IMG/VR virus record: IMGVR_UViG_3300037590_000079
Span: 32,001-96,000 of that record
Source: a virus
Taxonomy: Duplodnaviria; Caudoviricetes
Strand: one strand, 5' to 3'
Length of the DNA stretch: 64,000 bases
Shown here: one piece after another, positions 1,370 to 46,301 of the stretch
Numbering within the stretch: the first letter of the stretch is position 1
Layout: every line of letters starts with the position of its first letter
The notes under the pieces: model-generated
The model's database searches: none
What the model saw: the letters and a program-made list of their open reading frames with translations, nothing else
Told to the model about the DNA's origin: nothing
Position numbers and translations under genes: made by a program

Positions 1370-1915
1370 ATGAGTGATCCGTATCCGATGGAGATCTGGG
1401 GCGTTTCTCTGGAGCACGAAAAGGGCACGAAAGCGTATGATATCAAGGTCGTTTCGTCCTCCGCGGGGCCTGCCATCGTAATCTTTCGGTGGGGAAAGGT
1501 CGGTGTGCGCGGTGACATTCTCGTCAAGCGCTTCGACACCTATACCGAGGCGAAAAGCGCGGCCGAGGCCAAGAAAAGGGAGAAAAAGACCAGGGGATAC
1601 GATCAGACCTCCATTTCGGAAGCAAAAGTGGTGAATGGAAGATTTTCTCTGGTCCAGGCCATCGGCCGTCCCACACTGGCCAAGCTCGATCCTGATGACA
1701 TCACGCATATCGATCCCGATTTCGACACAAAGGGCATGCGCAGGCGCGAGCCGCCTCGGCTCGACGAGGACGGTCGGCTGAATCAGCGCGCCCTGCGCGA
1801 TAAGGAGCTGCGCGAGAAAGAGGAGCTGCGAAAGTTCCGCGAGGAACAGCGCAGGAAAGAGGAGGATGAAGCCGAATCCTTCTACAGGAACAACCCGCTA
1901 TACGGAGCATTCTGA
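1370..1915 (+). CDS. WGR-domain-like protein with C-terminal YxxNPxxGxF tag
   Basis: FRWGKVG..G....F....A.....K..EK..RGY pattern typical of WGR domains; own promoter/operator and RBS. Confidence 0.6.
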   Translation: MSDPYPMEIWGVSLEHEKGTKAYDIKVVSSSAGPAIVIFRWGKVGVRGDILVKRFDTYTEAKSAAEAKKREKKTRGYDQTSISEAKVVNGRFSLVQAIGRPTLAKLDPDDITHIDPDFDTKGMRRREPPRLDEDGRLNQRALRDKELREKEELRKFREEQRRKEEDEAESFYRNNPLYGAF

Positions 1916-2439
1916 TGAGCCACTACCAGACGCTTTTCCCCGAAAACCAGCTCAGGATCATCTGCCCGATCTTCAATGCCGAAACGAAGTTCTCGGATTG
2001 CGTGAGGCTGCGCCACAAGGTCTGGCGGGGCGAGCGGCCGGCCGTGCGGCAGGGCTGCCAGGCGTGCATGTCGGCCGGGAAATGCCCGGTTGCCGTGATC
2101 GTTCAGCGCATGGCGATGGCACCGCTTTCCGCACCGATGCCCGACGATTATCACGCGAGCGAACCCCGGCGCGGCAAGCTGAAAGCGGATGTTCTCGAAC
2201 GCATCGCACCGGTGATCGTCACCGAACGCGTGATGGCGCGCTACTCGCTTTCCGACACCGAAATCTCGGCAATCACGTCGGCGAATGCGCGCATCAGCAA
2301 GCAGGCCGGCTCCGCACCCGAGCCCACGTCTTCCTCGCCTTCGCCGCGCAAGAAGCCCGCCAGGAAGCGCGCGCCCGACAATGCCGTCAACCAGGCTGCC
2401 GCGTCCGGCGACATGTCGGCCGCTCTGAACAAGGACTGA
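1915..2439 (+). CDS. Cys-rich hypothetical protein with C-terminal AAxxGDxSAAxNK motif
   Basis: TGATG coupling to upstream gene; CP...C...CQAC....KCP. Confidence 0.75.
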   Translation: MSHYQTLFPENQLRIICPIFNAETKFSDCVRLRHKVWRGERPAVRQGCQACMSAGKCPVAVIVQRMAMAPLSAPMPDDYHASEPRRGKLKADVLERIAPVIVTERVMARYSLSDTEISAITSANARISKQAGSAPEPTSSSPSPRKKPARKRAPDNAVNQAAASGDMSAALNKD

Positions 2440-2442
2440 CCC

Positions 2443-3900
2443 ATGAACGAATATCTCAAGATCCGCGAAATCGAGAGTGTCAACGGGCGCAACGCGAAGG
2501 AAGATCTGCTGCGGGAGCTTCTCGCGCTCAAATACGGTCCCTGGATCATCAAGCACGCCTATGATCCGTTCATCACATACGGCATCACTCCGCCGCATCC
2601 CGACAGTATCGAGCAGGGCGATCTGCAAATGAGTTTTCGCCCCGAGCTGGCGCAGGGCCTTCTGGACAATCTGAGGACGCGGAAGCTGACGGGCAGGGCC
2701 GCCGAAAAGGAAGTCCATGATGTCATGAAGGCGTTCGAGCGCGACGGGCGCGATCTGCTCTACCGGATCCTGTCGAAGGATTTGAAATGCGGTATCGGCA
2801 CCACGACGATCGGCAATGTGGCGCCCGAACTGCTTCCGTCCTTCGCCGTGATGCGCGCGCAGCCCTACGAGGAGCGGCACGTCAAGCGCTGGCCGGTCAA
2901 GGTCGAATACAAGCTCGACGGCCAGCGAAATACGTTCCTGTGCCGCAACGGCGAGGGCTCGTTCTTCACCCGCTCGGGCAAGCCCGTTCCGGCGCTCGAT
3001 TTCTTCGTGCCGACGCTGATCGATCTGGCGAAGCGCGCGCCGGGCCTGGATCCTGACCTGGCGCATGTTCTGTGGAACGACGAGAACGAGCCCGATTTCA
3101 TGCTCGATGGCGAGGCGATGATGGGTCTTTTTGCCGAGACAGGTGCTCTTCGGCGCAAGAACGCAAGCGCGGAAAATGCCGAACTGCACCTTTACGACAT
3201 CATGCCTTTCGAGGATTTCGATGCGCCGAAGATAAAGACCCCGCTCCATCTTCGGCGGGCGGCGCTTGAGAGGTTCGTTCGTATCGCGAAGAAGCTCCTG
3301 CACGATACCGACAGGTCTGAAATGATCCAGATCGTGCCGCAGTATTTCGCCAATAGCCACGAGGAGATCGACCGGCTGTTCCGGCGCTCGCAGGTCAAGA
3401 CCCTCGCATCCTATCTGGCACGCGGTGACGCGGCGCGCGAGCGCGATCTGCTCAAGACCACGCTGGACAAGGTCACTGGCAAGCCGAAGGTGCTCGAAGG
3501 CGTCATGATCAAGGATCCGGATGCACCCTACGAGAAGAAGAAATCGCGCGCCTGGATGAAACTCAAGGCCGAGGAAACCGAGGATCTTGAGATCGTTGAT
3601 GCCGAACCGGGCGCGGTCGGCACGAAATACGAGGACTGCCTCGGCGCGCTGGTCGTGGATCGTGCCGGCGTGCGCGTGAAGGTCGGTGGCGGGTTCTCCG
3701 ACGAGGAGCGCGTCCAGCTTTGGAAGGACTATCAGCACGACACGGCAAAATCCGCCGCGATAGAGCCGCTCTTGCTCGGGCGTCTGGTCGAGGTCGAGTT
3801 TCACGAGGTCACGCCCGATGGCTCGCTGCGTCATCCGCGCTTCGTGCGGTTTCGCGACGACAAGCAGGGCGAAATTGAAAGCAAGGAGGATGCGGCATGA
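2443..3900 (+). CDS. ATP-dependent DNA ligase
   Basis: EYKLDGQR (motif I), LDGE, YDI, EGVMIK, WMKLK; C-terminal OB fold ending SLRHPRF..FRDDK. Confidence 0.95.
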   Translation: MNEYLKIREIESVNGRNAKEDLLRELLALKYGPWIIKHAYDPFITYGITPPHPDSIEQGDLQMSFRPELAQGLLDNLRTRKLTGRAAEKEVHDVMKAFERDGRDLLYRILSKDLKCGIGTTTIGNVAPELLPSFAVMRAQPYEERHVKRWPVKVEYKLDGQRNTFLCRNGEGSFFTRSGKPVPALDFFVPTLIDLAKRAPGLDPDLAHVLWNDENEPDFMLDGEAMMGLFAETGALRRKNASAENAELHLYDIMPFEDFDAPKIKTPLHLRRAALERFVRIAKKLLHDTDRSEMIQIVPQYFANSHEEIDRLFRRSQVKTLASYLARGDAARERDLLKTTLDKVTGKPKVLEGVMIKDPDAPYEKKKSRAWMKLKAEETEDLEIVDAEPGAVGTKYEDCLGALVVDRAGVRVKVGGGFSDEERVQLWKDYQHDTAKSAAIEPLLLGRLVEVEFHEVTPDGSLRHPRFVRFRDDKQGEIESKEDAA

Positions 3901-5249
3901 GTTTCACCGGCAAGGATCTGATCGAGATGGGCTTCGAGCCCGGTCCCTGGTTCAAGGATGCGATCCAGGCGGGCAGCGACATGCGCGCACGCGGCGCAAG
4001 CGACGAGGAGATTGCACGGGTGCTCGCCAAGTATCGGCCGCCCGAGAAGATCGCGATGCGCGACAAGGAGACGATCGGCACCTATCGCACCTTTTTGCCG
4101 AGGCCGGTCAACGAGACCGAGCTTCGGAACGAGGAAGCGGTCCACAAGGCGATGGACGAGATCATGCGTGTGCCGACCGTCGAAGCCGCGGTCGTCATGC
4201 CCGACGCGTGCCCGGCCGGAACCATTCCTGTCGGCGGTGTCGTTGCGACCAGGGACACGATCCATCCGGGCTATCACAGCGCGGACGTGTGCTGCTCGAT
4301 GGCGGTCAGCGTGTTCGGGGGCGGTGTCGATCCGAAGCGCGCGCTCGACATCATCGAGGTCTTGACGCATTTCGGCCCGACGAAGCGCTCGGCGCGTCCC
4401 GTCGAGGTTGATCCCGATCTGATCGACTCGATGGAGGACAATGTCTTTCTCAGCGGACTTGAGACCGTCGCGGTTGAGCATTTCTCCACGCAGGGCGACG
4501 GCAATCACTTCTACTATGTCGGGCACCTGGAGAACTCGGGCCATCTGGCTGTTGTCAGTCACCACGGCAGCCGCGGGCTCGGTGCCAGGCTCTACAAGCG
4601 CGGCATGCAGGCGGCGCAGCGCGAGACGGCGAAGATCGCGCGCGGCGTGCCCAAGGGGCACGCCTGGCTCAACATCAATACCGATCTGGGCGATCAGTAT
4701 TGGGAGGCGCTTCGGATTGTCCGGGAATGGACGCGACAGAACCACTTCGCCGTTCATGACGCCCTGCGCAGCCTGCTCGGCGTGACACTGCTGGATCGCT
4801 TCTGGAATCCGCACAATTTCGTGTTCCGTCGGAACGGTCTGTTCATGCACGCCAAGGGGGCCACGCCGTCCTACACCGGGCACAGTCGCGACGACGACGG
4901 TCGCACGCTCATCCCGATGAACATGGCCGAGCCGATCCTCGTCACCCGGCACGCCGAGAACGACGCGGCGCTCGGCTTCGCACCGCACGGGGCAGGGCGC
5001 AACATGAGCCGCACGCAGTTCCTGCGCGAGAACATCCCCGAGACGCCGGAGCATATCGACACGCGCTTCGCCTGCGGCATTCCCGACCCTTCGGAGTTGC
5101 CGGCCGCCTACAAGAGCGCGCACACGATCACCAATGCCATCAAGCAGCACGACCTCGCGATCATCGAGGACAGGATTCTGCCCTACGGCTCGATCATGGC
5201 CGGTGACTGGGAGCGCGACGCACCGTGGAAGAAAAGGAGACAGGAATGA
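3897..5249 (+). CDS. rtcB: RtcB family RNA ligase
   Basis: MPDAC, IPVGGV, SADVCC, GDGNHF, HHGSRG, HNF, H.KGAT, PHGAGR and SELP.AYK motifs. Confidence 0.92.
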   Translation: MSFTGKDLIEMGFEPGPWFKDAIQAGSDMRARGASDEEIARVLAKYRPPEKIAMRDKETIGTYRTFLPRPVNETELRNEEAVHKAMDEIMRVPTVEAAVVMPDACPAGTIPVGGVVATRDTIHPGYHSADVCCSMAVSVFGGGVDPKRALDIIEVLTHFGPTKRSARPVEVDPDLIDSMEDNVFLSGLETVAVEHFSTQGDGNHFYYVGHLENSGHLAVVSHHGSRGLGARLYKRGMQAAQRETAKIARGVPKGHAWLNINTDLGDQYWEALRIVREWTRQNHFAVHDALRSLLGVTLLDRFWNPHNFVFRRNGLFMHAKGATPSYTGHSRDDDGRTLIPMNMAEPILVTRHAENDAALGFAPHGAGRNMSRTQFLRENIPETPEHIDTRFACGIPDPSELPAAYKSAHTITNAIKQHDLAIIEDRILPYGSIMAGDWERDAPWKKRRQE

Positions 5250-7718: not shown

Positions 7719-10019
7719 ATGAAGCGTGCGATCAGCGACCTTCGCGAGGTCATTCAGAAACTCGTTCCCATGCTTGCAGGCAAGGGCCTGCAAGTCACGC
7801 AGCGCGGCACGGACGCCTATGTTTCCGTCAATGCGCGCACGAAGAAGCCCGAGCGTGTCAACATTCCGAACATCCCGGATGACGCGCCCGATGATTTCGT
7901 GCGCGCCATCCAGGGCTTTATCGACCACGAGGTCGCGCATGTCCTGATCACCGACTGGGACGTCTACGGCGGCGATCCTGCGCCCACCGAGTCCGAGCTG
8001 CGCGATCCTGTCGTGCGGCGGCGGATGCACATGCACAACATCACCGAGGATACCATGATCGAGCGCGAGATCGTCAGGATCTTTCCTGGCGCGCGGCGTA
8101 ACATCGCGGATCTTCGGAAGCATTTCATCGAAAATGTCACCAAGAAGGCGCTCGCGTCCGCGAAGGATGACCGCGAGCGCTTCAACTATCTTCTCGTGCC
8201 TGCCGTGCGCGCTCTCGCAGGCCACACCGAGTTCGAGGACTTCATGGATAGCGAGGGGCTGTGGTCGGAGCCGATGGTCGATCACCTGGTCCAGTCGCTC
8301 AAGCCCGAGACCATCGATCTGCTCAAGAAATGCACCACGACGCGCGAGACCCTGACCGTCGCGGACGAGTTGATCGACATCCTGCACAAGAAGGTCCAGC
8401 CGCCCGAGCAGAACCAGCCGCAGCAGTCGGGCGGTCAGTCCCAGGACAAGCCCGATCAGGAGGCTGGTGAAGGCGACGGCGATGGTGAGCGCGATCACCA
8501 GGATCAGCCGGATGACGACGGCGATCAGGATCAGGACCAGTCGGGCGAAGCTGACGGTGATCAGGATCAGGACCAGTCGGACGAAAAGGAGGATGACGGC
8601 GATGGCGAGAACAGCGACGGGTCTGACGATGGCGACTCCGAAGAGAGCGATGATGATGGCGACGGGAACGGTTCTGGTGACGCCGATGCCTCCGAGGACG
8701 GCGACGAACAAGCCGATGGTGACGCTGCTGATGATGGCTCCGACGGAGATGAAGGAGCTGATGAACAGGGTGACGGTGATCAGTCCGAAGGCGGTGGAGG
8801 TGATGCTGGGGAGCCTGAAGATGATGGGGATGACGCAGGCGGGTCCGGTGATGGCGATGGATCTGACGGAGGTGACACAGGATCGTCTGATGGGAGTGAA
8901 CAGACAGACGAGGCCGGATCGAGCGTAGGCCAGGCCGGCGGCGATGTTGACGGCGACGGGGATTCCGCCGAGGCCACCAGCGACGCCTCCGAGTCCGAGG
9001 GCGGCGGATATGGCGATGGTGTCGGCAAGTCCATGTTCGATTACGACGACGACGCCTTCGAGAACGCTGCTCTTGGCGAGGCGATGGCCGCCGAGATTTC
9101 GCGCAAGAGCGCCGAGGTCATGAACGTCTCCGACTGGACCGCCTACACGCGCGACTGGGACGTGATCGATTACCTGGAGCCGCCCGAGAAGATGAACAAG
9201 TCGTGGGTGCCCAAGCTCGAAGAGGACGTGCGCAGCATGGTCGGCGTCATGCAGAAGGATGTCGAGCGTATGATGGCCTCGCAGAGCCATGTCGTGAACA
9301 TTCCCGGCCAGCGCAGCGGCCGGCTGCATTCGCCCTCGCTCTACCGCGTCGGTCAGGGCGATCCTCGTGTTTTCACGCAGCGCCAGGAGCATCACTCCAA
9401 GGCGACGGCCGTCAGTCTCGTGATCGACAATTCCGGCTCGATGCACGGCTCGAAGATGGATCTGGCGATGGTCTCGGGCTATGCTCTTTCTGCCACGCTT
9501 GAGCGTGTCGGGATCGCGCACGAGGTGCTCGGTTTCACGACCGGCAACTACGGCAACCTGCCCCAGAGCATCATCGACTCCATCAACAAGGAAGTGGTCG
9601 ATAACGCGGGGCTTTATGATCGGCTCACCCCGATCGTCATGCCGATCTACAAGGCGTTCAATGACAGGCTCGACGCGACCGTCAAGAAGCGCATGGCCTA
9701 CGCGCGCAATGCGCAGAAAGGACTGGCCACGAATATCGACGGCGAGTCCCTGCTGATCGCTGCCGAACGGATGCGCACGCGCACGGAGAAGCGCAAGGTG
9801 ATGATCGTCCTGTCGGATGGCCGGCCGGTCGGCGGGCCGCGCTCCGGCACCCATCTGCGCTCGACCGTCAAGCTGCTCAACGAGAGCGGCATCGAGACGG
9901 TCGGTGTCGGGATCATGGATCGGAACGTGATGTCCTACTACGACAATCACACCGTAATCGACTCCATCGACGAGCTGCCGGGCCGCGTCATGGGCGAGAT
10001 CAAGCGCATCCTTGCGTGA
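7719..10019 (+). CDS. CobT-like vWA protein (N-terminal HExxH region, long acidic linker, C-terminal vWA/MIDAS)
   Basis: DHEVAH, NITED; D/G/E-rich linker; DNSGSM MIDAS and VLSDGRP. Confidence 0.85.
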   Translation: MKRAISDLREVIQKLVPMLAGKGLQVTQRGTDAYVSVNARTKKPERVNIPNIPDDAPDDFVRAIQGFIDHEVAHVLITDWDVYGGDPAPTESELRDPVVRRRMHMHNITEDTMIEREIVRIFPGARRNIADLRKHFIENVTKKALASAKDDRERFNYLLVPAVRALAGHTEFEDFMDSEGLWSEPMVDHLVQSLKPETIDLLKKCTTTRETLTVADELIDILHKKVQPPEQNQPQQSGGQSQDKPDQEAGEGDGDGERDHQDQPDDDGDQDQDQSGEADGDQDQDQSDEKEDDGDGENSDGSDDGDSEESDDDGDGNGSGDADASEDGDEQADGDAADDGSDGDEGADEQGDGDQSEGGGGDAGEPEDDGDDAGGSGDGDGSDGGDTGSSDGSEQTDEAGSSVGQAGGDVDGDGDSAEATSDASESEGGGYGDGVGKSMFDYDDDAFENAALGEAMAAEISRKSAEVMNVSDWTAYTRDWDVIDYLEPPEKMNKSWVPKLEEDVRSMVGVMQKDVERMMASQSHVVNIPGQRSGRLHSPSLYRVGQGDPRVFTQRQEHHSKATAVSLVIDNSGSMHGSKMDLAMVSGYALSATLERVGIAHEVLGFTTGNYGNLPQSIIDSINKEVVDNAGLYDRLTPIVMPIYKAFNDRLDATVKKRMAYARNAQKGLATNIDGESLLIAAERMRTRTEKRKVMIVLSDGRPVGGPRSGTHLRSTVKLLNESGIETVGVGIMDRNVMSYYDNHTVIDSIDELPGRVMGEIKRILA

Positions 10020-10119: not shown

Positions 10120-11379
10120 ATGTCAGACCAGAAAGCCGTCAACGAGGCGCAGGCCGAAAAAGTGCCCTCTTCGGAGGACAAGATCGTGTGCCATATCGAC
10201 AATGCTCGGGTGCATTCGATTCACAATCACATCCGGAACAACTATGCCGAGACGTGGACGGTCGAGCGCTACAAGGCCGAGTTTCCGGACGAGCCGCTTC
10301 TGTCGGACTACGCCAAGCACGTTCTGATGGAGCGCAAGCGCAAGCGCGAGGCCGAGGCTGCCGCCGTCGCGCCCTCGAACGCGGCCACGCCCGGCATGGT
10401 CAGTGCTGACGGTCAGTCGGTCACGCAGCCCGCGATGATCCAGGCCAACCTCAAGACCTTTCATGACGTGTTCGACCTGGGCGAGGCGCCCGCCGCGCGC
10501 AACGCGAACGGCAACCCGATCCAGATCGACGTGCTGAGCGGGCACAATCACGAGGGCATGGATTACCTTCCCGAGATCGACGAGGACTACGTGTTCAACA
10601 TCGACCTGCTCAAGAAGGTGATCATCGGCTTGCAGCTGAACATGCCGGTCTATCTCTGGGGCTATCACGGCACCGGCAAGACGACCATTCTGGAGCAGGC
10701 CAGTGCGCGCACCAAGCGGCCGTTCGTGCGTGTCCAGCACACCCTGAACATGCAGGAGTCGGATGTGCTTGGCCAGTGGACCGTGCGCGACGGCTCGACC
10801 GTGTTCCAGCTCGGGCCGCTTGCGATGGCGATGATCAACGGCTGGACCTACTGCGCGGACGAATACGACACCGCCATGCCGAACGTCACGACGGTCTATC
10901 AGCCCGTGCTTGAAGGCAAGCCGCTGCTGATCAAGGAAGCGCCGCCGCACTTCCGCAAGATCGTGCCGCATCCGCAGTTCCGCTTCTGCGCGACCGGCAA
11001 CACCAACGGCATCGGTGACGAGACCGGCCTCTATCAAGGCACGCTGATGCAGAACGCGGCGAACTACTCGCGCTTCCGCATCACCGAAGAGGTGCCCTAC
11101 ATGGAAGCGAATATCGAGACCGCCATCATCCAGGCGCGCGCCAAGATCGCGAAGAAGGATGCCGAGCGGATCGTGCGCTTCGCGAGGGATGTGCGCCAGA
11201 TGTTCATGGACGGCAAGATCTCCATGACCGTCAGCCCGCGCGAGTTGATCACGGCGGCTCAGCTCGGGCTGGCCTATGGCCGGAACTGGCGTATCGGTCT
11301 GGAACTCGCCTTCGTCAATCGTCTGAGCCGTGTCGATCGCCAGACTGTCGGTGAATACATGCAGAGGATCTTCGGCTGA
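10120..11379 (+). CDS. CobS/MoxR-like AAA+ ATPase
   Basis: GYHGTGKT Walker A, YCADEYD Walker B, ATGNT.G.GD..GLYQGT..QN.A..SRF, SPREL. Confidence 0.9.
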   Translation: MSDQKAVNEAQAEKVPSSEDKIVCHIDNARVHSIHNHIRNNYAETWTVERYKAEFPDEPLLSDYAKHVLMERKRKREAEAAAVAPSNAATPGMVSADGQSVTQPAMIQANLKTFHDVFDLGEAPAARNANGNPIQIDVLSGHNHEGMDYLPEIDEDYVFNIDLLKKVIIGLQLNMPVYLWGYHGTGKTTILEQASARTKRPFVRVQHTLNMQESDVLGQWTVRDGSTVFQLGPLAMAMINGWTYCADEYDTAMPNVTTVYQPVLEGKPLLIKEAPPHFRKIVPHPQFRFCATGNTNGIGDETGLYQGTLMQNAANYSRFRITEEVPYMEANIETAIIQARAKIAKKDAERIVRFARDVRQMFMDGKISMTVSPRELITAAQLGLAYGRNWRIGLELAFVNRLSRVDRQTVGEYMQRIFG

Positions 11380-12572: not shown

Positions 12573-15500
12573 ATGCACTCCGTTCTTGCGGCCCGCACGG
12601 ATTTCTCGCTGGGCGAGTCCATTCTCACGACCGAAGATCTCGTCGAGGAGGCGGAACGTATCGGTCAGAAAACCATCGCCTTCTCGGACACGATGTCCCT
12701 TTCCGCCCTGATCGATCTTTCCGAGAAGGCGAAGGAGCACGAGATCGGGGTCATTCCCGGCGTGCGGTTGCGGATGACAGATGATCCCGGCTGGCGGCCG
12801 GGGCCGGGCGAGAAGAAGAAGCACATGCCGCGCGCCCACTTCATCAGTGCCTATGCGCTCACGGAAGCGGGGCTCAAGGCGCTCTTCCGGCTTCTGACGC
12901 TCGCCAACAGCGAGGCGCGCTTCTACTACGTGCCCAAGCTGGGCTGGAGCGACCTGTATGCCGAGCTGGACGCGATCGATGTAGGCGATCTTGCCTTCGT
13001 GATCGGCGACGAGCTGTCGGCGCTGGAGCATCCCGACGCAGAAGGAATCGCGAAGCGCATTTCCCAGGGCTCGGAGCATGTCTATGCCGGCATGGTCGCG
13101 ATCGACACGCCCTATTTCGGCCGGTGCAACCAGATTGCGGCGGGGCTGTGCGCGCTGCCCGGTGTCGAGCCGCTCGTCATTCGGCCCGCTCTCTACTGCA
13201 AGGGGCAGGCCGATGCGCAGGAGATCATGACGGGGATCTGCGAGGGCTCGAAGATCACGGATGGATGGTTTCGGTCGCGCTACAAGCGCGACCTGCACTT
13301 GCAGTCCTTTGGTGAGATGATGCCCGAGGTCAAGGCGTGCATCCTGCATCTGCGCCAGCGCGGCGTGGCCGACGCGAAGGAGATCTTCACCGCCGGGATG
13401 CAGAACACGGACGCCTTCGTGGACGCGGCGCGCTATCGCTGGGAGAAGATGCCCGTTTCCCTGCCCAGGATGGCCCCGGATGAGTTCCAGGCGGTCGTCG
13501 ATGAATGCCGCAAGGGCTGGAAGGAGCGATTCGCCGCCGAGGTGTTCGGACACAAGCCGGGCCAGAAGGAGCTCAACGAGGTCTACATGCCGCGGCTCAA
13601 ATACGAGCTGGGCATTCTCAAGGAGCTGGAGTTTTCCGGCTACTTTCTGCTGGTCCAGGAGATCGTTCAGTTCGCCAAGAAAAGCGACATCCTCGTCGGT
13701 CCCGGCCGTGGCTCCGTCGGTGGCTCGCTGGTCGCGTATCTGATGGGGATCACCGAGTGCGACCCCATCCGTTTCGAATTGATGTTCGAGCGCTTCATCA
13801 ACCCCGAGCGGATCGACCTGCCCGACGCCGACCTCGATTTCATGTCCGAGCGGCGGCACGAAGTGGTCGAATATCTCGTCTCGAAATACGGACGCTCGAA
13901 GGTCGGCGGCGTGTCGAATTATGGCAGGCTTGCCGCGGCTTCTGCAATTCGTGATGTCGGACGCATCATCGGCATTCCCGAGAAGGACTTCTCTGTCTCG
14001 AAGATGGTGCCCAAGAAGCACGGTGCGAATGTTCCCCTGCCCGAGTGCCGCGAGGCCGTTGCGGAGATTGATCAGTTCGCGCAGGCGTATTCAGAAATCT
14101 GGCCTGTCATGGAGCTGCTTGAAGGCAAGGTGCGCAACATGAGCCAGCACGCGGCCGGGCTGGTGATCGCGGGGGTCGATCTGTGCGACCGCGCGGTGAT
14201 CGAGAAGCGCAAGGATAACGAGGTGGTCTGCTGGGACAAGCGCACGGTCGAGAACATGGGGCTTGTCAAGATCGACATTCTCGGCCTGAGCAATCTCGAC
14301 CATATCGCGCTCGCGCTGGAATACATCTCGGAGCGGCACGGGCACAAGCCTGCCATCGGGCGCATCCCGCTCGACGACCCCGATGTGATCGACCGTTTCG
14401 CGCGGGGCAAGACAACGGGTATCTTCCAGTTCGAAAGCGGCGGCATGCGTGGTCTGCTCAAGGAGCTTGGTGCGGACGGAACGCTGTCTTTCGAGGAGAT
14501 CGCCGCGGCCAGTGCCCTCTATCGCCCCGGCCCGATGGAGTCGGGCATGATGGAGAGCTTTTCGCGCCGCAAGCAGGGCTACGAGCCGATCGAATACGAT
14601 CATCCGCTCATGGAGCCGATCCTGAAACCGACCTACGGTGTGATCGTCTACCAGGAGCAGGTCATGAAAATCTCCCAGGCGATCGCGGGCTATACCGGTC
14701 CGGAAGCGGATAACCTTCGCAAGATCATGGGGAAAAAGCTGCCCGAGAAGATGGCCAAGGAGCGCGACAAGTTCGTGCGCGGCTGCGTTGAAACCATCCA
14801 GTGCGTCGAGGAGTGGGCCGGTGCGCTTTTCGACAAGATCGAGGGCTTCGCGGGCTATGGCTTCAATCGCAGTCACTCGGTGGAGTATTCGCTGATTTCC
14901 TACCAGTCGATGTGGCTCAAGGTGCATTATCCGGTCGAATTCTACGCCGCAGCGCTTACGATCATGCCCGAGGAGAAGCTGCCCGGCCTGATCAAGGAGG
15001 CGGCGCAAGACGGCATCACCGTCGCGATGCCCGATATCAACAAATCGACGGATCGGTTCGAGATCGTGACCGACAAGTCGCTCGCTATTCCCTTTCAGCG
15101 CGTCAAGGGTATCTCCGAAAAGACGGCTGCCGCGATCATGCAGGCGCGTTCGAGCGGTCCTTTTTCCGACAAGGCGGATTTTCTCGCGCGTGTCGAGAAG
15201 CGGCGCTGCAACATCAGGCACCAGGATATTCTCGACAGGATCGGCGCCTTCGCGCGGATCGAGCCGGGCCAGCTTCCCGCAGACCATCCGGATCGTGTCA
15301 GGGATCAGATCGAGTTGATCCCCGGCCTTGTCACGGCCAACGTGATGATCGGGCGCGACATGCACCGTGACAAGCTGACGCGCGGAGAGCTGAGCAAGGT
15401 GGTCGATGAATACCGCGACCAGGCCGGTGACGCGTCGATGCCGGTCAAGCCGCATTTCGGTCGCAAGCCGCGCTTCATGATCGTGTCGGACGCCCCGAAC

Positions 15501-15917
15501 AACGAGGATGATCGCAACGGCGTCATGGGTTACGGGATGTCGAACAGTGCCGTGACCGAGGCGCTGGCCGAGGCGGGGCTCGACATGACTGCCGTCTACT
15601 GGACCGCCCTGTGCAAGGTGCCCAAGGCCGATCGCCAGGTTACGCCCGAGCAGATTGCGCTATACAGAAAGTATCTCGAAAGGGAAATCGACCTGTTGAA
15701 GCCGCCGATCATCGTCATGCTTGGGAGCGTGACCACGCGCTTCTTTCTGCCGGGCTTCAAGGGCAAGGCGTCGGACGCGGCCGGAAAGGTGGAATACAAT
15801 GCCGATTTCGACGCGAACCTGATCGTCGCGTTCTCGCCCGGTGAAATCTATCACGCGCCCGAGAAGCAGGAAAACATGAACGCGGTCTTTGCGAAGGTCG
15901 CGGAACTTCTGGACTGA
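12573..15917 (+). CDS. dnaE: DNA polymerase III alpha subunit with C-terminal uracil-DNA-glycosylase-like domain
   Basis: GPGRGS..GSLVAY..GIT, FERFINPER.DLPD.D.DF, KIDILGL, GIFQFES, YQEQVM, F.GYGFN.SH; last ~160 aa resemble a family-4 UDG fold. Confidence 0.95.
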   Translation: MHSVLAARTDFSLGESILTTEDLVEEAERIGQKTIAFSDTMSLSALIDLSEKAKEHEIGVIPGVRLRMTDDPGWRPGPGEKKKHMPRAHFISAYALTEAGLKALFRLLTLANSEARFYYVPKLGWSDLYAELDAIDVGDLAFVIGDELSALEHPDAEGIAKRISQGSEHVYAGMVAIDTPYFGRCNQIAAGLCALPGVEPLVIRPALYCKGQADAQEIMTGICEGSKITDGWFRSRYKRDLHLQSFGEMMPEVKACILHLRQRGVADAKEIFTAGMQNTDAFVDAARYRWEKMPVSLPRMAPDEFQAVVDECRKGWKERFAAEVFGHKPGQKELNEVYMPRLKYELGILKELEFSGYFLLVQEIVQFAKKSDILVGPGRGSVGGSLVAYLMGITECDPIRFELMFERFINPERIDLPDADLDFMSERRHEVVEYLVSKYGRSKVGGVSNYGRLAAASAIRDVGRIIGIPEKDFSVSKMVPKKHGANVPLPECREAVAEIDQFAQAYSEIWPVMELLEGKVRNMSQHAAGLVIAGVDLCDRAVIEKRKDNEVVCWDKRTVENMGLVKIDILGLSNLDHIALALEYISERHGHKPAIGRIPLDDPDVIDRFARGKTTGIFQFESGGMRGLLKELGADGTLSFEEIAAASALYRPGPMESGMMESFSRRKQGYEPIEYDHPLMEPILKPTYGVIVYQEQVMKISQAIAGYTGPEADNLRKIMGKKLPEKMAKERDKFVRGCVETIQCVEEWAGALFDKIEGFAGYGFNRSHSVEYSLISYQSMWLKVHYPVEFYAAALTIMPEEKLPGLIKEAAQDGITVAMPDINKSTDRFEIVTDKSLAIPFQRVKGISEKTAAAIMQARSSGPFSDKADFLARVEKRRCNIRHQDILDRIGAFARIEPGQLPADHPDRVRDQIELIPGLVTANVMIGRDMHRDKLTRGELSKVVDEYRDQAGDASMPVKPHFGRKPRFMIVSDAPNNEDDRNGVMGYGMSNSAVTEALAEAGLDMTAVYWTALCKVPKADRQVTPEQIALYRKYLEREIDLLKPPIIVMLGSVTTRFFLPGFKGKASDAAGKVEYNADFDANLIVAFSPGEIYHAPEKQENMNAVFAKVAELLD

Positions 15918-23243: not shown

Positions 23244-23618
23244 ATGGCGCAGCTTTACGATATCAGCTTCACGACCTCGAAGATCGCGAGTGTCTACGAC
23301 GAGAAAGGCAATCTCACCACGCAGCGGTCGATGAACGAACCGATCCGGCTGACCGCCCTGCCCTACAGCACCGCCAAGGCGTATAGCGGCTGCGACAACT
23401 TCGAGATGGTTCCGCACGAGCCCGAGGCACGGCGTGGGCGCAAGACGCAGTCCGGCAGGGCCAAGTGGGGCGAGGCCGCGCCGCTCAAGACCGAGCGCGT
23501 GTCGAAGGGCAAGCGGACCGGCGAGATCACCGTGACCAAGGCGGGCAAGAACAGCGGCAAGTCGAGCGTGCAGCGCGCCGCCGAAACCGGCGATTATTCC
23601 GCCGCGATCAATAAGTAA
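23244..23618 (+). CDS. Hypothetical basic protein with C-terminal AAxxGDxSAAxNK motif
   Basis: GAGGGG RBS; C-terminus shared with 1915..2439. Confidence 0.75.
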   Translation: MAQLYDISFTTSKIASVYDEKGNLTTQRSMNEPIRLTALPYSTAKAYSGCDNFEMVPHEPEARRGRKTQSGRAKWGEAAPLKTERVSKGKRTGEITVTKAGKNSGKSSVQRAAETGDYSAAINK

Positions 23619-27811: not shown

Positions 27812-28276
27812 ATGGCAAAAAGCAAGACCAGGAGCAAGATGTCAGATCGCGAGATCGAGGTGATCGAGACCACTGCTATCGAGGTGGTCGAGACCCTGAG
27901 CGGTCACGAATTCGAGGTCGAAAGCGATATTGTGACGAGCGTCAAATACGCCGACGGGTCGTTCAGGAAAAAGACGCTGCCGACGGGGCTCAGCTTCTTC
28001 CTCGAATACGCTTATCTGGGCGCGCGCGGAAAGACGATTTTCGGGTTCGGCCCCGAGGACTCGCAGGAATACGATTACGCCGAGTTCTCCGAGGACGAGG
28101 TTGACAAGACCTTTCCGCTCGCAGGCGCCGTGCTGGCCAAGGCTCACAATCTCGAAACGGAGAATTTCGGGCAGGCGTTCGCCAAGATGCAGACCCAGGT
28201 CGCCGAGATCGTCGAATCCGAGGAAATCGAGGATGAGGAGATCTACAAGAACAACCCCATGTGCGGAGCATTTTGA
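27812..28276 (+). CDS. Acidic hypothetical protein with C-terminal YxxNPxxGxF tag
   Basis: Promoter/operator and GGAGG RBS; ends EDEEIYKNNPMCGAF. Confidence 0.8.
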   Translation: MAKSKTRSKMSDREIEVIETTAIEVVETLSGHEFEVESDIVTSVKYADGSFRKKTLPTGLSFFLEYAYLGARGKTIFGFGPEDSQEYDYAEFSEDEVDKTFPLAGAVLAKAHNLETENFGQAFAKMQTQVAEIVESEEIEDEEIYKNNPMCGAF

Positions 28277-41236: not shown

Positions 41237-41803
41237 ATGAACGGCATGATCATCGCCGGGTTCGATCTCGAAACGACAGGGCTGCTCTCGCCCGATCACC
41301 GCATCGTGGAGATCTACCTCGATCTCTGGCGCGACGGAAAGCGGATCTGGAAGTTCGAGCAACGGATCAATCCGCAGAGGGCGATTGCCGCGGATGCGCA
41401 GCGCGTTCACGGGATCACCAACGCCGACCTGATCGGCAAGCCGACCTTCGAGCAGGTGGCACCCGTTATCTCGAAAGCGCTGCGCAAGGCGCATGTCGTG
41501 GTCGCGCATAACGGCGAGGAATTCGACTGGCCGTTCCTTGAGCAGGAGATGAAGCGCGCCGCGATCGCCCTGCCGCGCGTCCCGCTTTTCGACACCATGA
41601 AACGCGGCATCTGGGCGACCCCGCACGGCAAGAACCCGAGCCTCATGGAGCTGTGTTTCGCCTGCGGCGTGGAATACGACCCGGCCAAGGCGCACGCCGC
41701 GAGTTATGACGTCGAGGTCATGATCGAATGCCTGCGCAAGGGCATCGAGTGGAATTTCTTCGATCTCACCGATTGCACGGAAGGGAATAACGTCGCCGCG
41801 TGA
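41237..41803 (+). CDS. DEDDh 3'-5' exonuclease (DnaQ/epsilon-like)
   Basis: FDLETTG, VHGI, AHN..FD, AH.A.YD. Confidence 0.92.
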   Translation: MNGMIIAGFDLETTGLLSPDHRIVEIYLDLWRDGKRIWKFEQRINPQRAIAADAQRVHGITNADLIGKPTFEQVAPVISKALRKAHVVVAHNGEEFDWPFLEQEMKRAAIALPRVPLFDTMKRGIWATPHGKNPSLMELCFACGVEYDPAKAHAASYDVEVMIECLRKGIEWNFFDLTDCTEGNNVAA

Positions 41804-41903
41804 CGTGCCGCGACAACCCAGCCGATTTCCTTAAATCTTTGATGTATAAAGAAAATACAAGACAAAGCGACAAGGCAGATAAATAGCAGAAGGAGTAATC
41901 GCT

Positions 41904-43050: not shown

Positions 43051-43431
43051 ATGGAAAATCGCGAACATCGTATCGAGAACCTGACGAAAATCGGCAGCGT
43101 GGCTTTCGACCTGGGCGCACCGCTCGAAAAGGCGGAGCAGATCCATCAGGCCATCGCCTATGTCGAGAACAAGGAGGGCCTGACGCCTTGGCAGCTGCGT
43201 GTGCTGGACGAGGCACGCGCCGATCTCAACGAGGCTCTGGCCGAGACCGGCATCCAGCTGGGCGAGCGCGAGCTGGCCGCTGTGCTGGCGGGCCTGCGGC
43301 TTGTCCAGGCGGAAATGGGGCGCGGAGAGTTCCTGCCCCAGGGCGTGCATTCCATCTTCGACGACGACGGCACGATCACCCCGCTCGACACGGACGAGAT
43401 CGACGCCCTCTGCGAGCGCATCAACGGCTGA
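43051..43431 (+). CDS. Hypothetical protein
   Basis: Codon usage, RBS. Confidence 0.7.
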   Translation: MENREHRIENLTKIGSVAFDLGAPLEKAEQIHQAIAYVENKEGLTPWQLRVLDEARADLNEALAETGIQLGERELAAVLAGLRLVQAEMGRGEFLPQGVHSIFDDDGTITPLDTDEIDALCERING

Positions 43432-43443
43432 AAGGAGATCGTC

Positions 43444-43803
43444 ATGCCGGTATACGAGGTCGAGGTCGCGCGCACCGACCATTTCAGTGTCACCGTCGAG
43501 GCGGATGACGAGTCCCAGGCGCGCGACATGGCGTGCGAGACGCTCGCCCATATGGAAGATCCGGTGAATTCCGATCTTTTCTCGCACTGCGACGGGTTCG
43601 AAAGCTGCGGCTGCGAGCTGGTGAACGAAATGACGCTGGATGACGCCAAGGATGCCTGGCGGGCCGGGAAGTCGAAGCGGACGGCGGCCGCCTACATGAC
43701 GGCGCTCATGGAATACGAGAACGAGGGCATGATCGGCGACGAGACCTTTCGCAACGGGCTCGCCGAGATCATGAACTGGATGGAGAAGGAAACGTCCGGA
43801 TGA
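43444..43803 (+). CDS. Hypothetical protein
   Basis: AAGGAG RBS. Confidence 0.7.
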   Translation: MPVYEVEVARTDHFSVTVEADDESQARDMACETLAHMEDPVNSDLFSHCDGFESCGCELVNEMTLDDAKDAWRAGKSKRTAAAYMTALMEYENEGMIGDETFRNGLAEIMNWMEKETSG

Positions 43804-44096
43804 CAAGAACGCGCGAGGAGAACGCCGCCGATCTGGCGGCCGAGGAGCAGGCGGAGAACGAGCTTGTTACGCGGGCGGCGCCCTACTGGGCGTGGCAGAT
43901 CATCGACGACCTGCTGATGCGCGCAGAGACCGATCTGGATCACGAGGGTGATCTGATCGTGCCCGGCTCGGAAGGACCGGATGACGAAGTCTTGGCTCTG
44001 CGTGCCGCCAATATCGCGATGATCCGCGCCACCGAGACCGAGGATCAGCCGATCTCGCGCCGCGAAATCGACGCCCTGCTGCGCCAGTCCGGTTGA
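43800..44096 (+). CDS. Hypothetical protein
   Basis: ATGA coupling. Confidence 0.7.
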   Translation: MTRTREENAADLAAEEQAENELVTRAAPYWAWQIIDDLLMRAETDLDHEGDLIVPGSEGPDDEVLALRAANIAMIRATETEDQPISRREIDALLRQSG

Positions 44097-44193
44097 TCAC
44101 CACGACCATCAGAATGCTATACGTTGCACAATACATCCTTTTTGCGACATGCTAACGTGTAGCAGATGCAGAGAAAGACAGAAGGAGACACTA

Positions 44194-44454
44194 TTGGAAC
44201 TGCTCTATATCGGATCGATCGTTACCATTCTCGGAATGCAGGGGCCTGACGGCCTGCCGACCGTGACGGTCGATCATGTCCACATCGGCACGGAGGAATT
44301 CTGCTACGAGTGGCGCGATGCCTTCTACAGCGACGTGCCGCGATCGGTCGATCCCGTCACGGGTTCTTCCATCATCGCGACCTTCTTCGAATGCACGCCC
44401 TACCCGCCGGACAAGCTGATCGAGGCCGTCGAGGAGTTTCGCTCCAAGAGCTAA
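44194..44454 (+). CDS. Hypothetical (possibly secreted/membrane) protein, TTG start
   Basis: AAGGAG RBS before TTG; TGCTAT element upstream. Confidence 0.55.
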   Translation: MELLYIGSIVTILGMQGPDGLPTVTVDHVHIGTEEFCYEWRDAFYSDVPRSVDPVTGSSIIATFFECTPYPPDKLIEAVEEFRSKS

Positions 44455-44636
44455 TCATCCACTCCGGCGATGTCGATGTAAGACCTCTGAGCGAGCATCC
44501 TGATCGAGGGACAGGCTTTCGAGACCTGCTCGCTGGCTTCTTCGTGACCGTTTGCGACAAGGTGACTGGCGATCGCTTTTGCGATCTCTGCGGAGAGATC
44601 GTCAATCTTATCGAGAACCTCGAACCTGTGTGACAT
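44451..44636 (-). CDS. Small hypothetical protein on the minus strand
   Basis: GAGGG RBS and an operator copy (44647-44662) directly upstream. Confidence 0.5.
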   Translation of the reverse strand: MSHRFEVLDKIDDLSAEIAKAIASHLVANGHEEASEQVSKACPSIRMLAQRSYIDIAGVDD

Positions 44637-44813
44637 GACACCCTCGTTCAGTCATTAATGACATTAGAAACAGTGGTTATCGAGTCGGAAACAATAGGTC
44701 AACACCCCTAACACCAAAAGGAAAATCGTGATTTTCCTTTTGCGCGCAGAAAGCATCCTTTGCGCTTTCGCTATATAGAAAGCGTGAAACATGACAGACA
44801 AGGAAGGCCCACA

Positions 44814-45137
44814 ATGTCGAAAGTGAACATGATGAACCTGCCCTCGAAAGAGGAGAGCAACCCCATCGAGGAAGGTGACGGGGTGATCATCATTAAGCCG
44901 AACGGCGACATCAAGACCATGTCCTACGGCGTGGACAAGGATCTGGTGAAGGCCGTCAGCCGCAAGGATCCGGACAAGATGAACGAGCAGGAGCAGGCCA
45001 TCTTCCTCCAGGGATACATGATGTTCCTTCTCACGATGGCGGCAAGCAGCAATGAAATCATGAAGATGCTCGCGGATATCGCCGACCAGGCCGAGTTGTC
45101 CGGTGACACGGATAAATTCGTGAACCAGATGCACTGA
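44814..45137 (+). CDS. Hypothetical protein
   Basis: RBS, GCTATA promoter. Confidence 0.7.
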   Translation: MSKVNMMNLPSKEESNPIEEGDGVIIIKPNGDIKTMSYGVDKDLVKAVSRKDPDKMNEQEQAIFLQGYMMFLLTMAASSNEIMKMLADIADQAELSGDTDKFVNQMH

Positions 45138-45144
45138 GGCCGAT

Positions 45145-45384
45145 ATGGCGAACGGTTACAGCAAAAAGAGGGTGGCCTTCGCGGCGGAGGTCTTTCTTTC
45201 GGAGATGCGGCACAGGGCTGCGCGCACGGGGGCACATGTTTCGATCGGGCGGCTGAAGGATTATCCGCCCGATCAGAGATCCGCCGTGATCGCCAGTGTC
45301 GAGCGCGCCCTCAACTCGCTCGACACCAGTCACGACGAAGCCTTCGGAAAGTGGGCGGAAAAGCAGCCGGGCGATCTGTCCTGA
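45145..45384 (+). CDS. Hypothetical protein
   Basis: GAGG RBS. Confidence 0.6.
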   Translation: MANGYSKKRVAFAAEVFLSEMRHRAARTGAHVSIGRLKDYPPDQRSAVIASVERALNSLDTSHDEAFGKWAEKQPGDLS

Positions 45385-45388
45385 TTTG

Positions 45389-45413
45389 CGCTATATAGTA
45401 AGTAAGCCCTGAC
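45389..45413 (+). promoter_or_regulatory. -10 + operator
   Basis: CGCTATATA-GTAAGTAAGCCCTGAC. Confidence 0.7.
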
Positions 45414-45431
45414 GAACGAGAGGAGAGGAAA

Positions 45432-45671
45432 ATGTCGGCAAGGATGATGAAACTGATCGAGAGCGATCTCGCCCGCGAAGGGAAGAGGCTGAGCGACACC
45501 AAGGTCTGCATGATCCTGACGGAAGGATCCGAGTTGAGGTGCAGGATCGAGAGTATCGATATCGCCAATGGCTCGATGAAGGTGACGCACGAGCAAAGCC
45601 GGACACGGGGCTATGTGATGATGGCGCACGTCATAGCCGTCCAGATCGCGCCCGAGGATGATCATGGGTAA
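45432..45671 (+). CDS. Hypothetical protein
   Basis: Promoter/operator and strong RBS. Confidence 0.65.
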   Translation: MSARMMKLIESDLAREGKRLSDTKVCMILTEGSELRCRIESIDIANGSMKVTHEQSRTRGYVMMAHVIAVQIAPEDDHG

Positions 45672-45891
45672 GAGGCGAATAACCAAGGCAATGCGTGAAT
45701 TCATCAAGCAGCTGAGCGGCATCACCGACGAGTTCGAACTGGACGAAAGCCGAAGGCATCCGAGGATCACATTCTGCGGAAACAGAGGCCAATCCGTCGT
45801 AACCCTTTCGAAAACCCCATCGGACAGACATGCGGTGAAAAACGCGCTCGCGCAGTGCCGAAGAGCCGCGGAGAAAGCGGGCGTGATATGA
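45664..45891 (+). CDS. HicA-like small protein
   Basis: RRHP.I ... V.LSKTPSD.HA.KN....RR. Confidence 0.5.
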   Translation: MGKRRITKAMREFIKQLSGITDEFELDESRRHPRITFCGNRGQSVVTLSKTPSDRHAVKNALAQCRRAAEKAGVI

Positions 45892-46301
45892 CACCGAGCA
45901 AGAAGGAATTCGAGCGGTTACTCCAGCAGCAGTCGCTCATGGATCACATCCGGGATTCGTTCCAATATACCACTCAGAACAGCCTGATGTTGCCATCAAT
46001 GCGCGCAGGCAAGACGACGGCGACGGTGCAGGCTCTCCAGAAGATGAACCAGGACAGGAGAATGCAGGACTTCGCCAGTTCGGTCCAGACATTGCCCTCT
46101 TCGACAACCGACACGTCAAAAGTCCTGGAGGAGATGAACCGGATCGCGAAGTCCTTCAAGAACACCAAGATTCATGGTCGGGAACTCACCAACATCTTCA
46201 TTGATGAATGGACGGATATGCCCCGTGACCAGCAGAAAGACGAGATCGAGGACGAGGATGAGGACTTCTATCGTCACAATCCTGACTGCGGTCGCTTCTG
46301 A
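45888..46301 (+). CDS. Mini-protein with Walker A/B-like motifs and C-terminal YxxNPxxGxF tag
   Basis: RAGKTT, IHGRELTNIFIDEW; ends EDEDFYRHNPDCGRF. Confidence 0.7.
   Translation: MTPSKKEFERLLQQQSLMDHIRDSFQYTTQNSLMLPSMRAGKTTATVQALQKMNQDRRMQDFASSVQTLPSSTTDTSKVLEEMNRIAKSFKNTKIHGRELTNIFIDEWTDMPRDQQKDEIEDEDEDFYRHNPDCGRF

Follow-up and report, generated by a model that had tools for sequence, protein, structure and literature searches.

A C-terminal tag shared by unrelated proteins in a family of alphaproteobacterial phages and phage-plasmids

In bacteriophage T4, the C-terminal tails of gp43, gp33, and gp55 bind the sliding clamp gp45, and this logic of a hub that reads C-terminal peptides is well known for clamps. 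For SSB, it is the hub that bears the C-terminal tail and the clients that bear the pockets. Terminal peptides are found in other settings too: T4 directs unrelated proteins to the capsid by means of a common targeting peptide, and exposed aromatic-rich C termini, such as that of SulA, are typical of Lon and HslUV signals. Two further systems are relevant here: WGR domains, which sense DNA nicks or ends and relay the signal to a neighboring domain, and MoxR AAA+/VWA pairs, among them CobS-CobT-CobN and CbbQ-CbbO. Many phages are annotated with CobS/CobT; however, we know of no function for these proteins in phages and of no defined client motif for MoxR AAA+/VWA systems. Most proteins of large phages are without known function, and many of the proteins described below are ORFans. 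A shared address label would sort such clients into one functional set and provide a handle on their common partner and role.

The shared C terminus and its carriers

The window analyzed here is a 64,000-nucleotide stretch of a 109,661-bp genome, that of a Rhizobium-type phage-plasmid of ~110 kb. Translation placed the sequence [FI]Y[RK]xNPx[YC]G[AR]F at the extreme C terminus, directly before the stop codon, of three plus-strand ORFs, in agreement with the initial annotation, which had noticed the same stop-abutting motif on three dissimilar proteins (hereafter, clients). Client 1 (1370–1915) is a WGR-domain protein of 181 amino acids, whose tag FYRNNPLYGAF comprises residues 171 to 181 (1880–1915, stop codon included). 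Client 2 (27812–28276), a protein of 154 amino acids without known domain, ends with IYKNNPMCGAF at residues 144 to 154 (28241–28276 with the stop codon). Client 3 (45888–46301) is 137 amino acids long, or 148 if the alternative start at 45855 is used, and carries FYRHNPDCGRF at residues 127 to 137 (46266–46301, again with the stop codon). The tags are preceded by ..EEDEAES, ..EEIEDEE, and ..EDEDED, respectively. Six-frame scans of the window (2804 stop-bounded segments) and of the whole genome detected Y..NP..G.F before a stop in these three ORFs only, all on the plus strand. In 300 shufflings of the C-terminal 40 residues in 2190 segments, the chance expectation was 0.000 as compared to the three tags seen.

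The codons of the three tags differ at synonymous sites, and glycine and arginine codons vary freely between tags of one genome. Thus, the likeness of the tags is kept by selection at the protein level and not by a DNA repeat, which bears out the earlier interpretation. The bodies of the clients gave BLASTP E values above 0.3 against each other, and hhalign aligned only their last 9 to 17 columns, that is, the tail. Judged by these sequence comparisons, the three bodies are unrelated, and homology over their whole length is absent.

Two parts of the initial annotation did not hold. It had treated the acidic stretch as half of the motif; however, positions −23 to −12 have a mean net charge of −6 here, whereas in nine relatives the value is about −1 to +1. 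By this comparison, the acidic run is a trait of this lineage and lies outside the general motif. It had also proposed a 32–amino acid plus-strand ORF (50594–50692), ending with FYRPARPGAF, as a weaker fourth member. We found no support for this candidate, in which the register is off by one residue, N-P is missing, and proline replaces the aromatic residue at −4; no homolog was found in the nine relatives.

Word-index searches returned one relative for client 2 and none for client 1; homologs had to be sought with tblastn and a full-scale HMMER search. In 9 of the 10 genomes, the client 1 ortholog carries the tag. Client 2 has no Pfam, PHROG, or ESM Atlas match, and its AF2 model, built from a two-sequence alignment, was poor (pLDDT 47); its orthologs are tagged in nine genomes, as is JGI protein P0005. 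The motif is kept in orthologs, the families of clients 1 and 2 retaining it in 9 of 10 genomes at 25 to 45% identity. Client 3 gave no tblastn match in phage and plasmid collections, and its family (BLASTP family 3) was seen only by BLASTP among relatives. All members of this family, from six genomes, are tagged; alignment shows that client 3 is shortened relative to the others, which measure 159 to 243 amino acids. The gene of client 1 belongs to a primase-WGR-ligase module, and that of client 2 lies between SbcC-like and RuvC-like genes.

The tag carriers are ~110-kb alphaproteobacterial siphophages and phage-plasmids, including RHEph10, RHph_X66, and pLM21S1. Many different bodies end with the tag: the 10 genomes together contain 55 tagged ORFs, which BLASTP groups into ~24 body families. 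The number of tagged proteins per genome ranges from three here to as many as eight in relatives. The motif has the core [NH]-P-x-[FYW]-G-x-[FW]-COOH, and tyrosine is frequent at −10. In five related records, [FY]GxF before a stop gave 36 matches in the forward direction, none in reverse, and 6 in the control, and the motif is essentially confined to C termini. The linkers ahead of it are often proline-rich and flexible. The tag also ends 131 of 149 representatives (50%-identity clusters) of a family of short, free-standing WGR proteins of 145 to 195 amino acids. The nearest ESM Atlas clusters of this family are 67 to 83% viral; the motif defines a large, mostly viral protein family. A logo of 140 tails showed L/N/T at −5, W/F/Y at −4, glycine at −3 in all 140, and M/R/A/L/S at −2.

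The tails had no match in Pfam or PHROGs, and literature text searches with tail strings and phage names retrieved no description of the motif, consistent with the earlier remark that it is not a described family. The tag has the features of a short linear motif: it is short, sits on unrelated bodies after a linker, is conserved in orthologs, and is position-specific. The tail is a genuine motif of this kind, maintained by selection, and we consider it fairly probable that its function is docking.

Genome-specific flavors of the tag

The tag comes in flavors that differ between genomes. Here, it reads [YC]G[AR]F and follows an acidic run; in the RHEph10 clade, it is NPN[FY]GRF, and four other relatives carry WG[VILM]F (G001), WG[SL]F (G002), FG[MI]F (G003), or WG[AS]W (L064). 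An IMG/VR scan for NPNFGRF before a stop gave matches confined to this phage family. When tags of two non-homologous families were compared, 5.0 of 7 residues matched within a genome versus 4.0 of 7 between genomes (P = 3/720, exact; 9/20000). Phages X66 and N1_10 have unlike flavors, although both infect the same host species, R. phaseoli. The matching of tags within genomes fits a single co-evolving, phage-encoded reader, and the tags most likely plug all clients into one such partner. Docking to one reader is, in our estimate, better supported than not, and we infer from the same comparisons that the reader is encoded by the phage. The shared flavor could, however, partly stem from stricter constraint instead of co-evolution. 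Co-variation within genomes provides a clean natural experiment for studying the co-evolution of a hub with many unrelated clients.

The initial annotation had suggested that the tagged proteins are clients of one receptor, such as a CobS/CobT-like pair, a protease, the replisome, or the virion. The concerted variation of the tags fits the first part of this claim, while we found no specific evidence for any of the receptors it named. The reader could not be singled out by intersecting gene content across the 10 tag-bearing genomes, which have about 50 core genes in common.

Other C-terminal signals are present in these phages. Between 11 and 25 genes per genome end with -AA in the relatives, as compared to ~1.5 expected; in this genome, 3 of 139 genes do. 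Separately, a second C-terminal tag occurs in this genome, A-A-x-T-G-D-[LM]-x-A-A-[IL]-N. Considered with the tag described here, it suggests that addressing by terminal peptides is perhaps a common and little-described layer of phage cell biology.

The WGR protein as a candidate reader

Client 1 belongs to the WGR domain family PF05406 (E = 1.8e-10, 41.2 bits; gathering score, 22). Its AF2 model had a mean pLDDT of 95.7 and a pTM of 0.81, and Foldseek matched it to the WGR domains of PARP2, PARP3, and PARP1 (probability 0.99 to 1.0, E 2e-3 to 1e-1). The protein consists of a WGR fold (residues 1 to 115), a conserved extension, a helix (139 to 173), and the tag, and the helix and tag are also found in the other short WGR proteins. 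WGR domains occur fused to ATP-dependent ligases (PMC7470946); here, the ligase gene is located two genes downstream of the WGR gene.

The tail of client 1 is predicted to be ordered (mean pLDDT 92 for residues 171 to 180) and, from pLDDT and covariation, to lie on the protein's own WGR domain, near residues 47 and 101-102. Residue 47 (codon 1508–1510), an arginine here and F or W in most relatives, sits in the hairpin loop after the W-G-K motif and is a candidate pocket residue for tag position −4. By APC-corrected mutual information (MIp), the pair formed by residue 47 and tail −4 ranked 12 of 9870, among pairs consistent with predicted hairpins; residues 101-102 (nucleotides 1670–1675) are also coupled with residue 47. 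The contingency counts for this pair were W/W 30, W/FY 2, F/FY 47, and F/W 8. In the 10 genomes, residue 47 is tryptophan only in G001 and G002, and tryptophan occupies −4 in 11 of the 12 tags there versus none of 43 elsewhere. This covariation could be phylogenetic: an independent-pairs test, underpowered here, supported one pair only, and a sister relationship between G001 and G002 is possible. Alternatively, residue 47 and the tail might each touch a third partner or DNA. In the alignment, the G001 WGR protein lacks most of segment 113 to 135 and retains the tag.

From pLDDT and covariation, we tentatively propose that the WGR protein may itself hold a tag-binding pocket, a reading to which we give clearly less than even odds; among the candidate readers, it is the best and most specific lead. 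In the mechanism that we envisage, the tag, carried on a flexible proline/glutamate-rich or charged helical linker, ends unrelated proteins of the early and replication modules, and one phage-encoded partner would read all tagged proteins of its phage. Such a single partner would account for the joint drift of the tags within a genome. The proposed partner is the WGR protein, which also carries the tag more constantly than any other client. The pocket that receives its own tail would bind those of the other clients in trans, and the WGR protein would gather the tagged clients at DNA nicks or ends. In its full form, with the WGR protein as a nick- or end-sensing hub whose own tag fills the pocket at rest until DNA binding or competition frees that pocket for the recruitment of three to eight tagged clients, the scheme is speculative, and we regard it as rather doubtful. 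If it were true, the recruits would include client 2, encoded between SbcC-like and RuvC-like genes, which would be brought to DNA breaks. Together with the second tag and the -AA endings, it would also mean that much of the early proteome is run by C-terminal address labels.

Other candidate readers and comparison with known systems

The CobS/CobT-like MoxR AAA+/VWA pair encoded at 7719–10019 and 10120–11379 would be another kind of reader, using the tail as a handle for gripping clients, with the terminal carboxylate or aromatics at the MIDAS face of the VWA domain or with the tail threading into the AAA+ pore. Such pairs are dedicated remodelers with a small docking surface near the MIDAS, and CobT and CobS are core genes in all 10 tag-bearing genomes, a status shared by about 50 others. 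A precedent comes from cobaltochelatase, whose client CobN uses the final helices of its C-terminal domain to dock on CobT beside the MIDAS (bioRxiv 10.64898/2026.07.21.739949). CobS/CobT is annotated in many phages, whereas NPNFGRF before a stop, one flavor of the tag, was limited in an IMG/VR scan to this phage family. We consider this pair an unlikely reader.

Similarly, the tag could be a degron, its exposed aromatic C terminus marking early proteins for a host AAA+ protease, whether Lon, HslUV, ClpXP, or FtsH, that limits their lifetime. The phage family clearly employs C-terminal signals, as the -AA endings of the relatives demonstrate, and X66 is annotated with an HslV-family peptidase. 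However, the HslV-like gene is absent from G001, G002, and G003, which carry four to seven tags each, and this also speaks against the protease suggested initially. Moreover, flavors differ between phages of the same host species, the WGR tail is predicted to be ordered and not exposed, and the separate -AA signal is already present on other proteins. A degron is thus quite improbable. In its more specific form, a ClpX ssrA-like degron ending with -[LV]-A-A-COOH, the tag resembles -LAA/-AA in being a C-terminal signal common to unrelated proteins, but we rejected this identification as all tags end with G-x-[FW] and none with -AA. The HbYX proteasome-activator motif, a hydrophobic-Tyr-X C terminus of ATPases or activators, was also rejected: the penultimate residue of the tag is variable and never a conserved tyrosine, the carriers are not ATPases, and three tagged genomes lack the HslV-like gene.

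The modules encoding the three constant clients, devoted to replication and recombination, would fit a motif that binds a hub of these processes: the host beta clamp, the gp32-like SSB, a RecA-like recombinase, or a DnaB-like helicase. We found little in favor of such a hub, which appears very unlikely. The genome showed no match to the sliding clamp families PF00712 and PF02916 at E ≤ 1, which weakens the earlier suggestion of the replisome; three core hypothetical proteins had no Pfam or PDB sequence match, and a very divergent clamp could still escape detection. The phage DnaE proteins of the 10 genomes contain no tag-like or QxxLF motif, internal or terminal, and a conserved host clamp would leave the phage-specific flavors unexplained.

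Last, the absence of any common reader, with the tag acting as an intramolecular cap spread among proteins (as the predicted packing of the WGR tail on its own protein might suggest) or as a capsid-targeting label with the T4 peptide as precedent, is highly improbable, since ~24 unrelated bodies cannot share one cap site, linkers are often proline-rich and flexible, the tags on unrelated clients vary together in each genome, and the client genes lie in early and replication regions outside the head module. The T4 capsid-targeting sequence itself was rejected as an identity for the tag, being an N-terminal peptide of virion-internal proteins that the prohead protease cleaves, where the tag is strictly C-terminal.

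Among known systems, the gp45-binding tails of T4 are, like the tag, short hydrophobic or aromatic peptides that form the very C terminus of unrelated DNA-metabolism proteins, and they share with it one phage-encoded hub, which here is presumed. In contrast to them, the tag has no L-D-F-L type motif, no clamp is detectable, and the best candidate hub is the WGR protein, itself tagged. The beta-clamp motif QL[SD]LF/QxxLxF, with glutamine first and hydrophobic Leu/Phe at −4, −2, and −1, is likewise a penta- or hexapeptide, often C-terminal, that ends with phenylalanine and enters a hydrophobic pocket. The tag differs in its invariant glycine at −3, its variable −2 position (leucine in QL[SD]LF), its N-P turn, and its phage-specific flavors; with no conserved glutamine in the 140-tail logo and none of it in phage DnaE, we rejected this identity. 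The SSB tip DDDIPF and the tails of T7 gp2.5 and gp4 also present phenylalanine and a free carboxylate after a flexible, here acidic, segment. However, the analogy with SSB drawn in the initial annotation is lineage-specific, and the tag was rejected as an SSB-Ct tail: it is borne by many non-SSB clients, the acidity is confined to this lineage, and the gp32-like phage SSB (PF08804) has an acidic tip of its own, D-[IV]-L-x-[ED]-L-D-x-[ILV]. With PARP1, PARP2, and PARP3, client 1 shares the WGR fold, as seen by Pfam and Foldseek, but it is free-standing and lacks the PARP catalytic domain. WGR domains are known mainly from PARPs, and the tag suggests a way in which one that stands alone might signal without a catalytic domain: if the WGR protein were indeed the hub, it would be a PARP-like allosteric sensor in which peptide exchange replaces ADP-ribosylation as the signal.

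The shared tag and its carriers

The window covers bases 32001-96000 of a single virus record of 109,661 bp with 61% G+C. The element is syntenic with the Rhizobium siphophages RHph_X66 (X66), RHEph10, and RHph_N1_10 and with three plasmids, pLM21S1, P. qamdonense p5, and pRlX6. Such relatives have been described as phage-plasmids with repC, parA, and parB (PMC7969092, PMC12509600). Mapped on the X66 annotation and Pfam, the gene order of the window starts with primase, a WGR protein (tagged), a Cys-rich protein, an ATP-dependent ligase, and RtcB, followed by RepC and an XRE-family regulator, a CobT-like VWA protein and a CobS-like AAA+ protein, and a sigma factor and a DnaE fused to a UDG domain. 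Further downstream lie a gp32-like SSB, a 5'-3' exonuclease, and a RecA-like protein; SbcD, SbcC, client 2 (tagged), and a RuvC-like protein; and RNR, ThyX, dUTPase, rIIA/rIIB, epsilon exonuclease, and a small-ORFan region including client 3 (tagged). The DnaE-type polymerase (12573-15917) has PHP, palm, fingers, and HhH domains, and its usual OB/tau-binding C terminus is replaced by a uracil-DNA-glycosylase-superfamily domain (residues 964-1101); this fusion region is alignable in all ten genomes.

The WGR protein (1370..1915), client 2 (27812..28276), and client 3 (45888..46301) all carry an acidic run and then, ending exactly at the stop codon, the sequence [FI]-Y-[RK]-x-N-P-x-[YC]-G-[AR]-F. 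The translations agreed with the initial annotation, which had claimed a common acidic-YxxNPxxGxF tag, and, as it had also stated, the eleven tag codons differ synonymously among the three ORFs. The bodies are unrelated by BLASTP. Profile-profile comparison confined the alignment of the three clients to the last 9-17 columns, with E=2.9e-8 over 17 columns for the WGR protein and client 2. In 300 rounds of shuffling applied to the C-terminal 40 residues of each of the 2190 segments of >=25 aa, the expected number of matches was 0.000. No further match to Y..NP..G.F$ was found in the window (2804 stop-bounded segments, all frames) or in the remainder of the whole genome. A 32-aa ORF (50594-50692), proposed earlier as a possible fourth member, departs from the motif and has no homologue in nine relatives.

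Compared with its orthologues, client 3 lacks 20-100 residues (loci L003:10817-11479 and L026:2415-2966 of related records, and others). Because MAFFT aligns an internal R-D-P-R-[HN]-P-N-P-x-A-G conserved in these orthologues to the tag of client 3, the latter may have been rebuilt in this genome after an internal deletion or truncation.

Conservation and concerted variation of the tag

Five related records contained 36 forward matches to the degenerate pattern [FY]-G-x-F-stop, as compared to 0 in reverse and 6 for the control. Whole-record scans identified 55 tagged ORFs in 10 genomes (2-8 per genome), and BLASTP grouping of their bodies yielded about 24 families. The motif search suggested by the initial annotation showed that different bodies carry the tag. 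It is also kept in orthologues, as the WGR and client-2 families are tagged in 9/10 genomes; pRlX6 has lost the stop of the WGR gene and contains client 2 as a fragment. The client 3 family is the third, tagged in six genomes. In coding ORFs, the motif sits at the C terminus with few exceptions, behind linkers that are charged and helical or Pro/Glu-rich. The acidic run, included in the original definition of the tag, holds for the three ORFs of this genome (mean net charge -6) but not elsewhere (about -1). Apart from the WGR protein and one PhoH, whose tagged end may be due to chance, the clients had no Pfam/PHROG matches.

Aberrant or truncated ends in pRlX6 (loci L036-L042) affect several core genes, namely those for gp32, DnaB, SbcD, CobS, the 5'-3' exonuclease, the WGR protein, and client 2. 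This plasmid may be decaying, or its record may contain frameshift errors.

When 1.84 billion representatives were scanned in full with HMMER, 171 proteins related to the WGR client were detected (E<=1e-3). The tag ends 131 of the best 149 of these 171 (145-195 aa), and several more of the 149 carry it plus one extra residue. Among 140 WGR-family tails, counted back from the stop, glycine at -3 was invariant (140/140), while -1 was mostly F (122) or W (17) and -4 was W (57), F (56), or Y (27). Proline was found at -6 in 105/140, asparagine at -7 in 88/140, and tyrosine at -10 in 51/140; position -5 was L or N, and -2 was M, R, A, L, or S. The nearest ESM Atlas clusters were 67-83% viral, and the fetched loci from IMG/VR and GTDB lie on contigs of 106-130 kb, among them one from Ancylobacter and one from a betaproteobacterial MAG.

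The flavour of the tag differs genome by genome. It is [YC]G[AR]F in this genome, N-P-N-[FY]-G-R-F in the RHEph10 clade, and x-[FY]-G-[AG]-F in the X66 clade, while the genomes G001, G002, and G003 carry W-G-[VILM]-F, W-G-[SL]-F, and F-G-[MI]-F, respectively, and locus L064 carries W-G-[AS]-W. X66 and N1_10 have different flavours and the same host species. Over the last seven residues, WGR and client-2 tags agreed at 5.0/7 positions within a genome as compared to 4.0/7 with genomes permuted (P=3/720, exact, six lineages; 9/20000, nine genomes). The free variation of codon usage within the tags makes recent gene conversion unlikely. Such concerted flavours are what a single co-evolving, phage-encoded reader binding all tags of one phage would produce.

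Candidate readers of the tag

Modelled by AF2 with a 146-sequence alignment, the WGR protein had a mean pLDDT of 95.7 and a pTM of 0.81, and its body resembles the PARP2/3/1 WGR domains. The tag (residues 171-180) is coil by DSSP with a mean pLDDT of 92; thus, the model predicts a packed tail and not a free one. APC-corrected mutual information over 140 sequences coupled tail position -4 with body residue 47 (rank 12 of 9870, z 4.8), placing the pair among those fitting predicted contacts in hairpins and between sheet and helix. A further coupling links residue 47 to residues 101-102. Across the family, Trp47 occurs with Trp at -4 in 30/32 cases and Phe47 with F or Y at -4 in 47/55. Among complete genomes, residue 47 is Trp in G001 and G002 only, where 11/12 tags have Trp at -4 as compared to 0/43 elsewhere. 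An independent-pairs test of the coupling returned one supported pair, too few for power. The simplest reading is that the WGR protein carries a tag pocket and is itself the candidate reader. Its own tail would occupy the pocket in cis, and the tails of other clients would bind there in trans; all mechanistic steps beyond the sequence statistics are ones that we infer.

The same coupling could possibly reflect a third partner touching both residue 47 and the tail. Gene content does not narrow the choice, because about 50 core genes are common to all tag-bearing genomes, with the candidate readers CobS/CobT, gp32, the RecA-like protein, and DnaB all among them. The CobS/CobT pair stays in play as a rival reader, since in true cobaltochelatase the docking site of CobN on CobT lies close to the MIDAS (bioRxiv 10.64898/2026.07.21.739949). 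Other candidates lose ground: the HslV-like peptidase is absent from G001-G003; no sliding clamp was found by Pfam in this genome (PF02916 and PF00712, E<=1) or by PDB sequence matching of three core hypothetical proteins; and the phage DnaE has no tag-related motif.

Other terminal peptides and comparison with known systems

A second C-terminal tag, A-A-x-[ST]-G-D-[MY]-S-A-A-[LI]-N-K(..), is found on three unrelated proteins of this genome: the Cys-rich protein that follows the WGR protein (1915-2439), a protein between SbcD and SbcC (23244-23618), and, ahead of the window, a protein encoded behind the capsid gene (genome 9235-9876). Four proteins carry it in X66 (T-G-D-L-A-A-A-[IL]) and two in RHEph10. 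Endings in -Ala-Ala (ClpX ssrA-type) occur in 11-25 genes per genome in relatives (loci L001-L042 and L065-L082) against ~1.5 expected, including ligase, RecA, epsilon, 5'-3' exonuclease, RuvC, SbcC, and UvsW. This genome has 3/139 such genes (2443-3900 and 41237-41803 being the only two within the window), so that most of its orthologues seem to have lost the ending. The gp32-like SSB (PF08804; 16924-17838) has an acidic amphipathic tip, D-[IV]-L-x-[ED]-L-D-x-[ILV], conserved in 9/10 genomes, possibly a third docking peptide of the hub-borne kind. Beyond the window, two adjacent ORFs (genome 101266-101439 and 101452-102780), probably in the tail-fibre region, have similar ends, ..[IL]-D-G-G-[NT]-F-stop. 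Before it, a core 290-330-aa protein (genome 2262-3146, with orthologues; annotated in X66 as ABC ATP-binding protein) has an invariant internal S-P-[LM]-Y-G-[VL]-[WF], which is tag-like and constant across tag flavours.

In PARPs, WGR domains sense nicks and ends, and some bacterial ATP-dependent ligases carry a fused WGR domain (PMC7470946); here, a ligase gene is found two genes downstream of the WGR gene. Literature text searches found no description of the tag motif. In its logic, with one C-terminal peptide on many clients and one hub, the tag resembles T4 gp45-binding tails and bacterial clamp-binding motifs; however, it lacks the defining features of both, as well as those of the SSB tip, the ssrA degron, the HbYX motif, and the T4 capsid-targeting sequence. 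The tag is a variant of a known principle, with a concrete and testable candidate reader.
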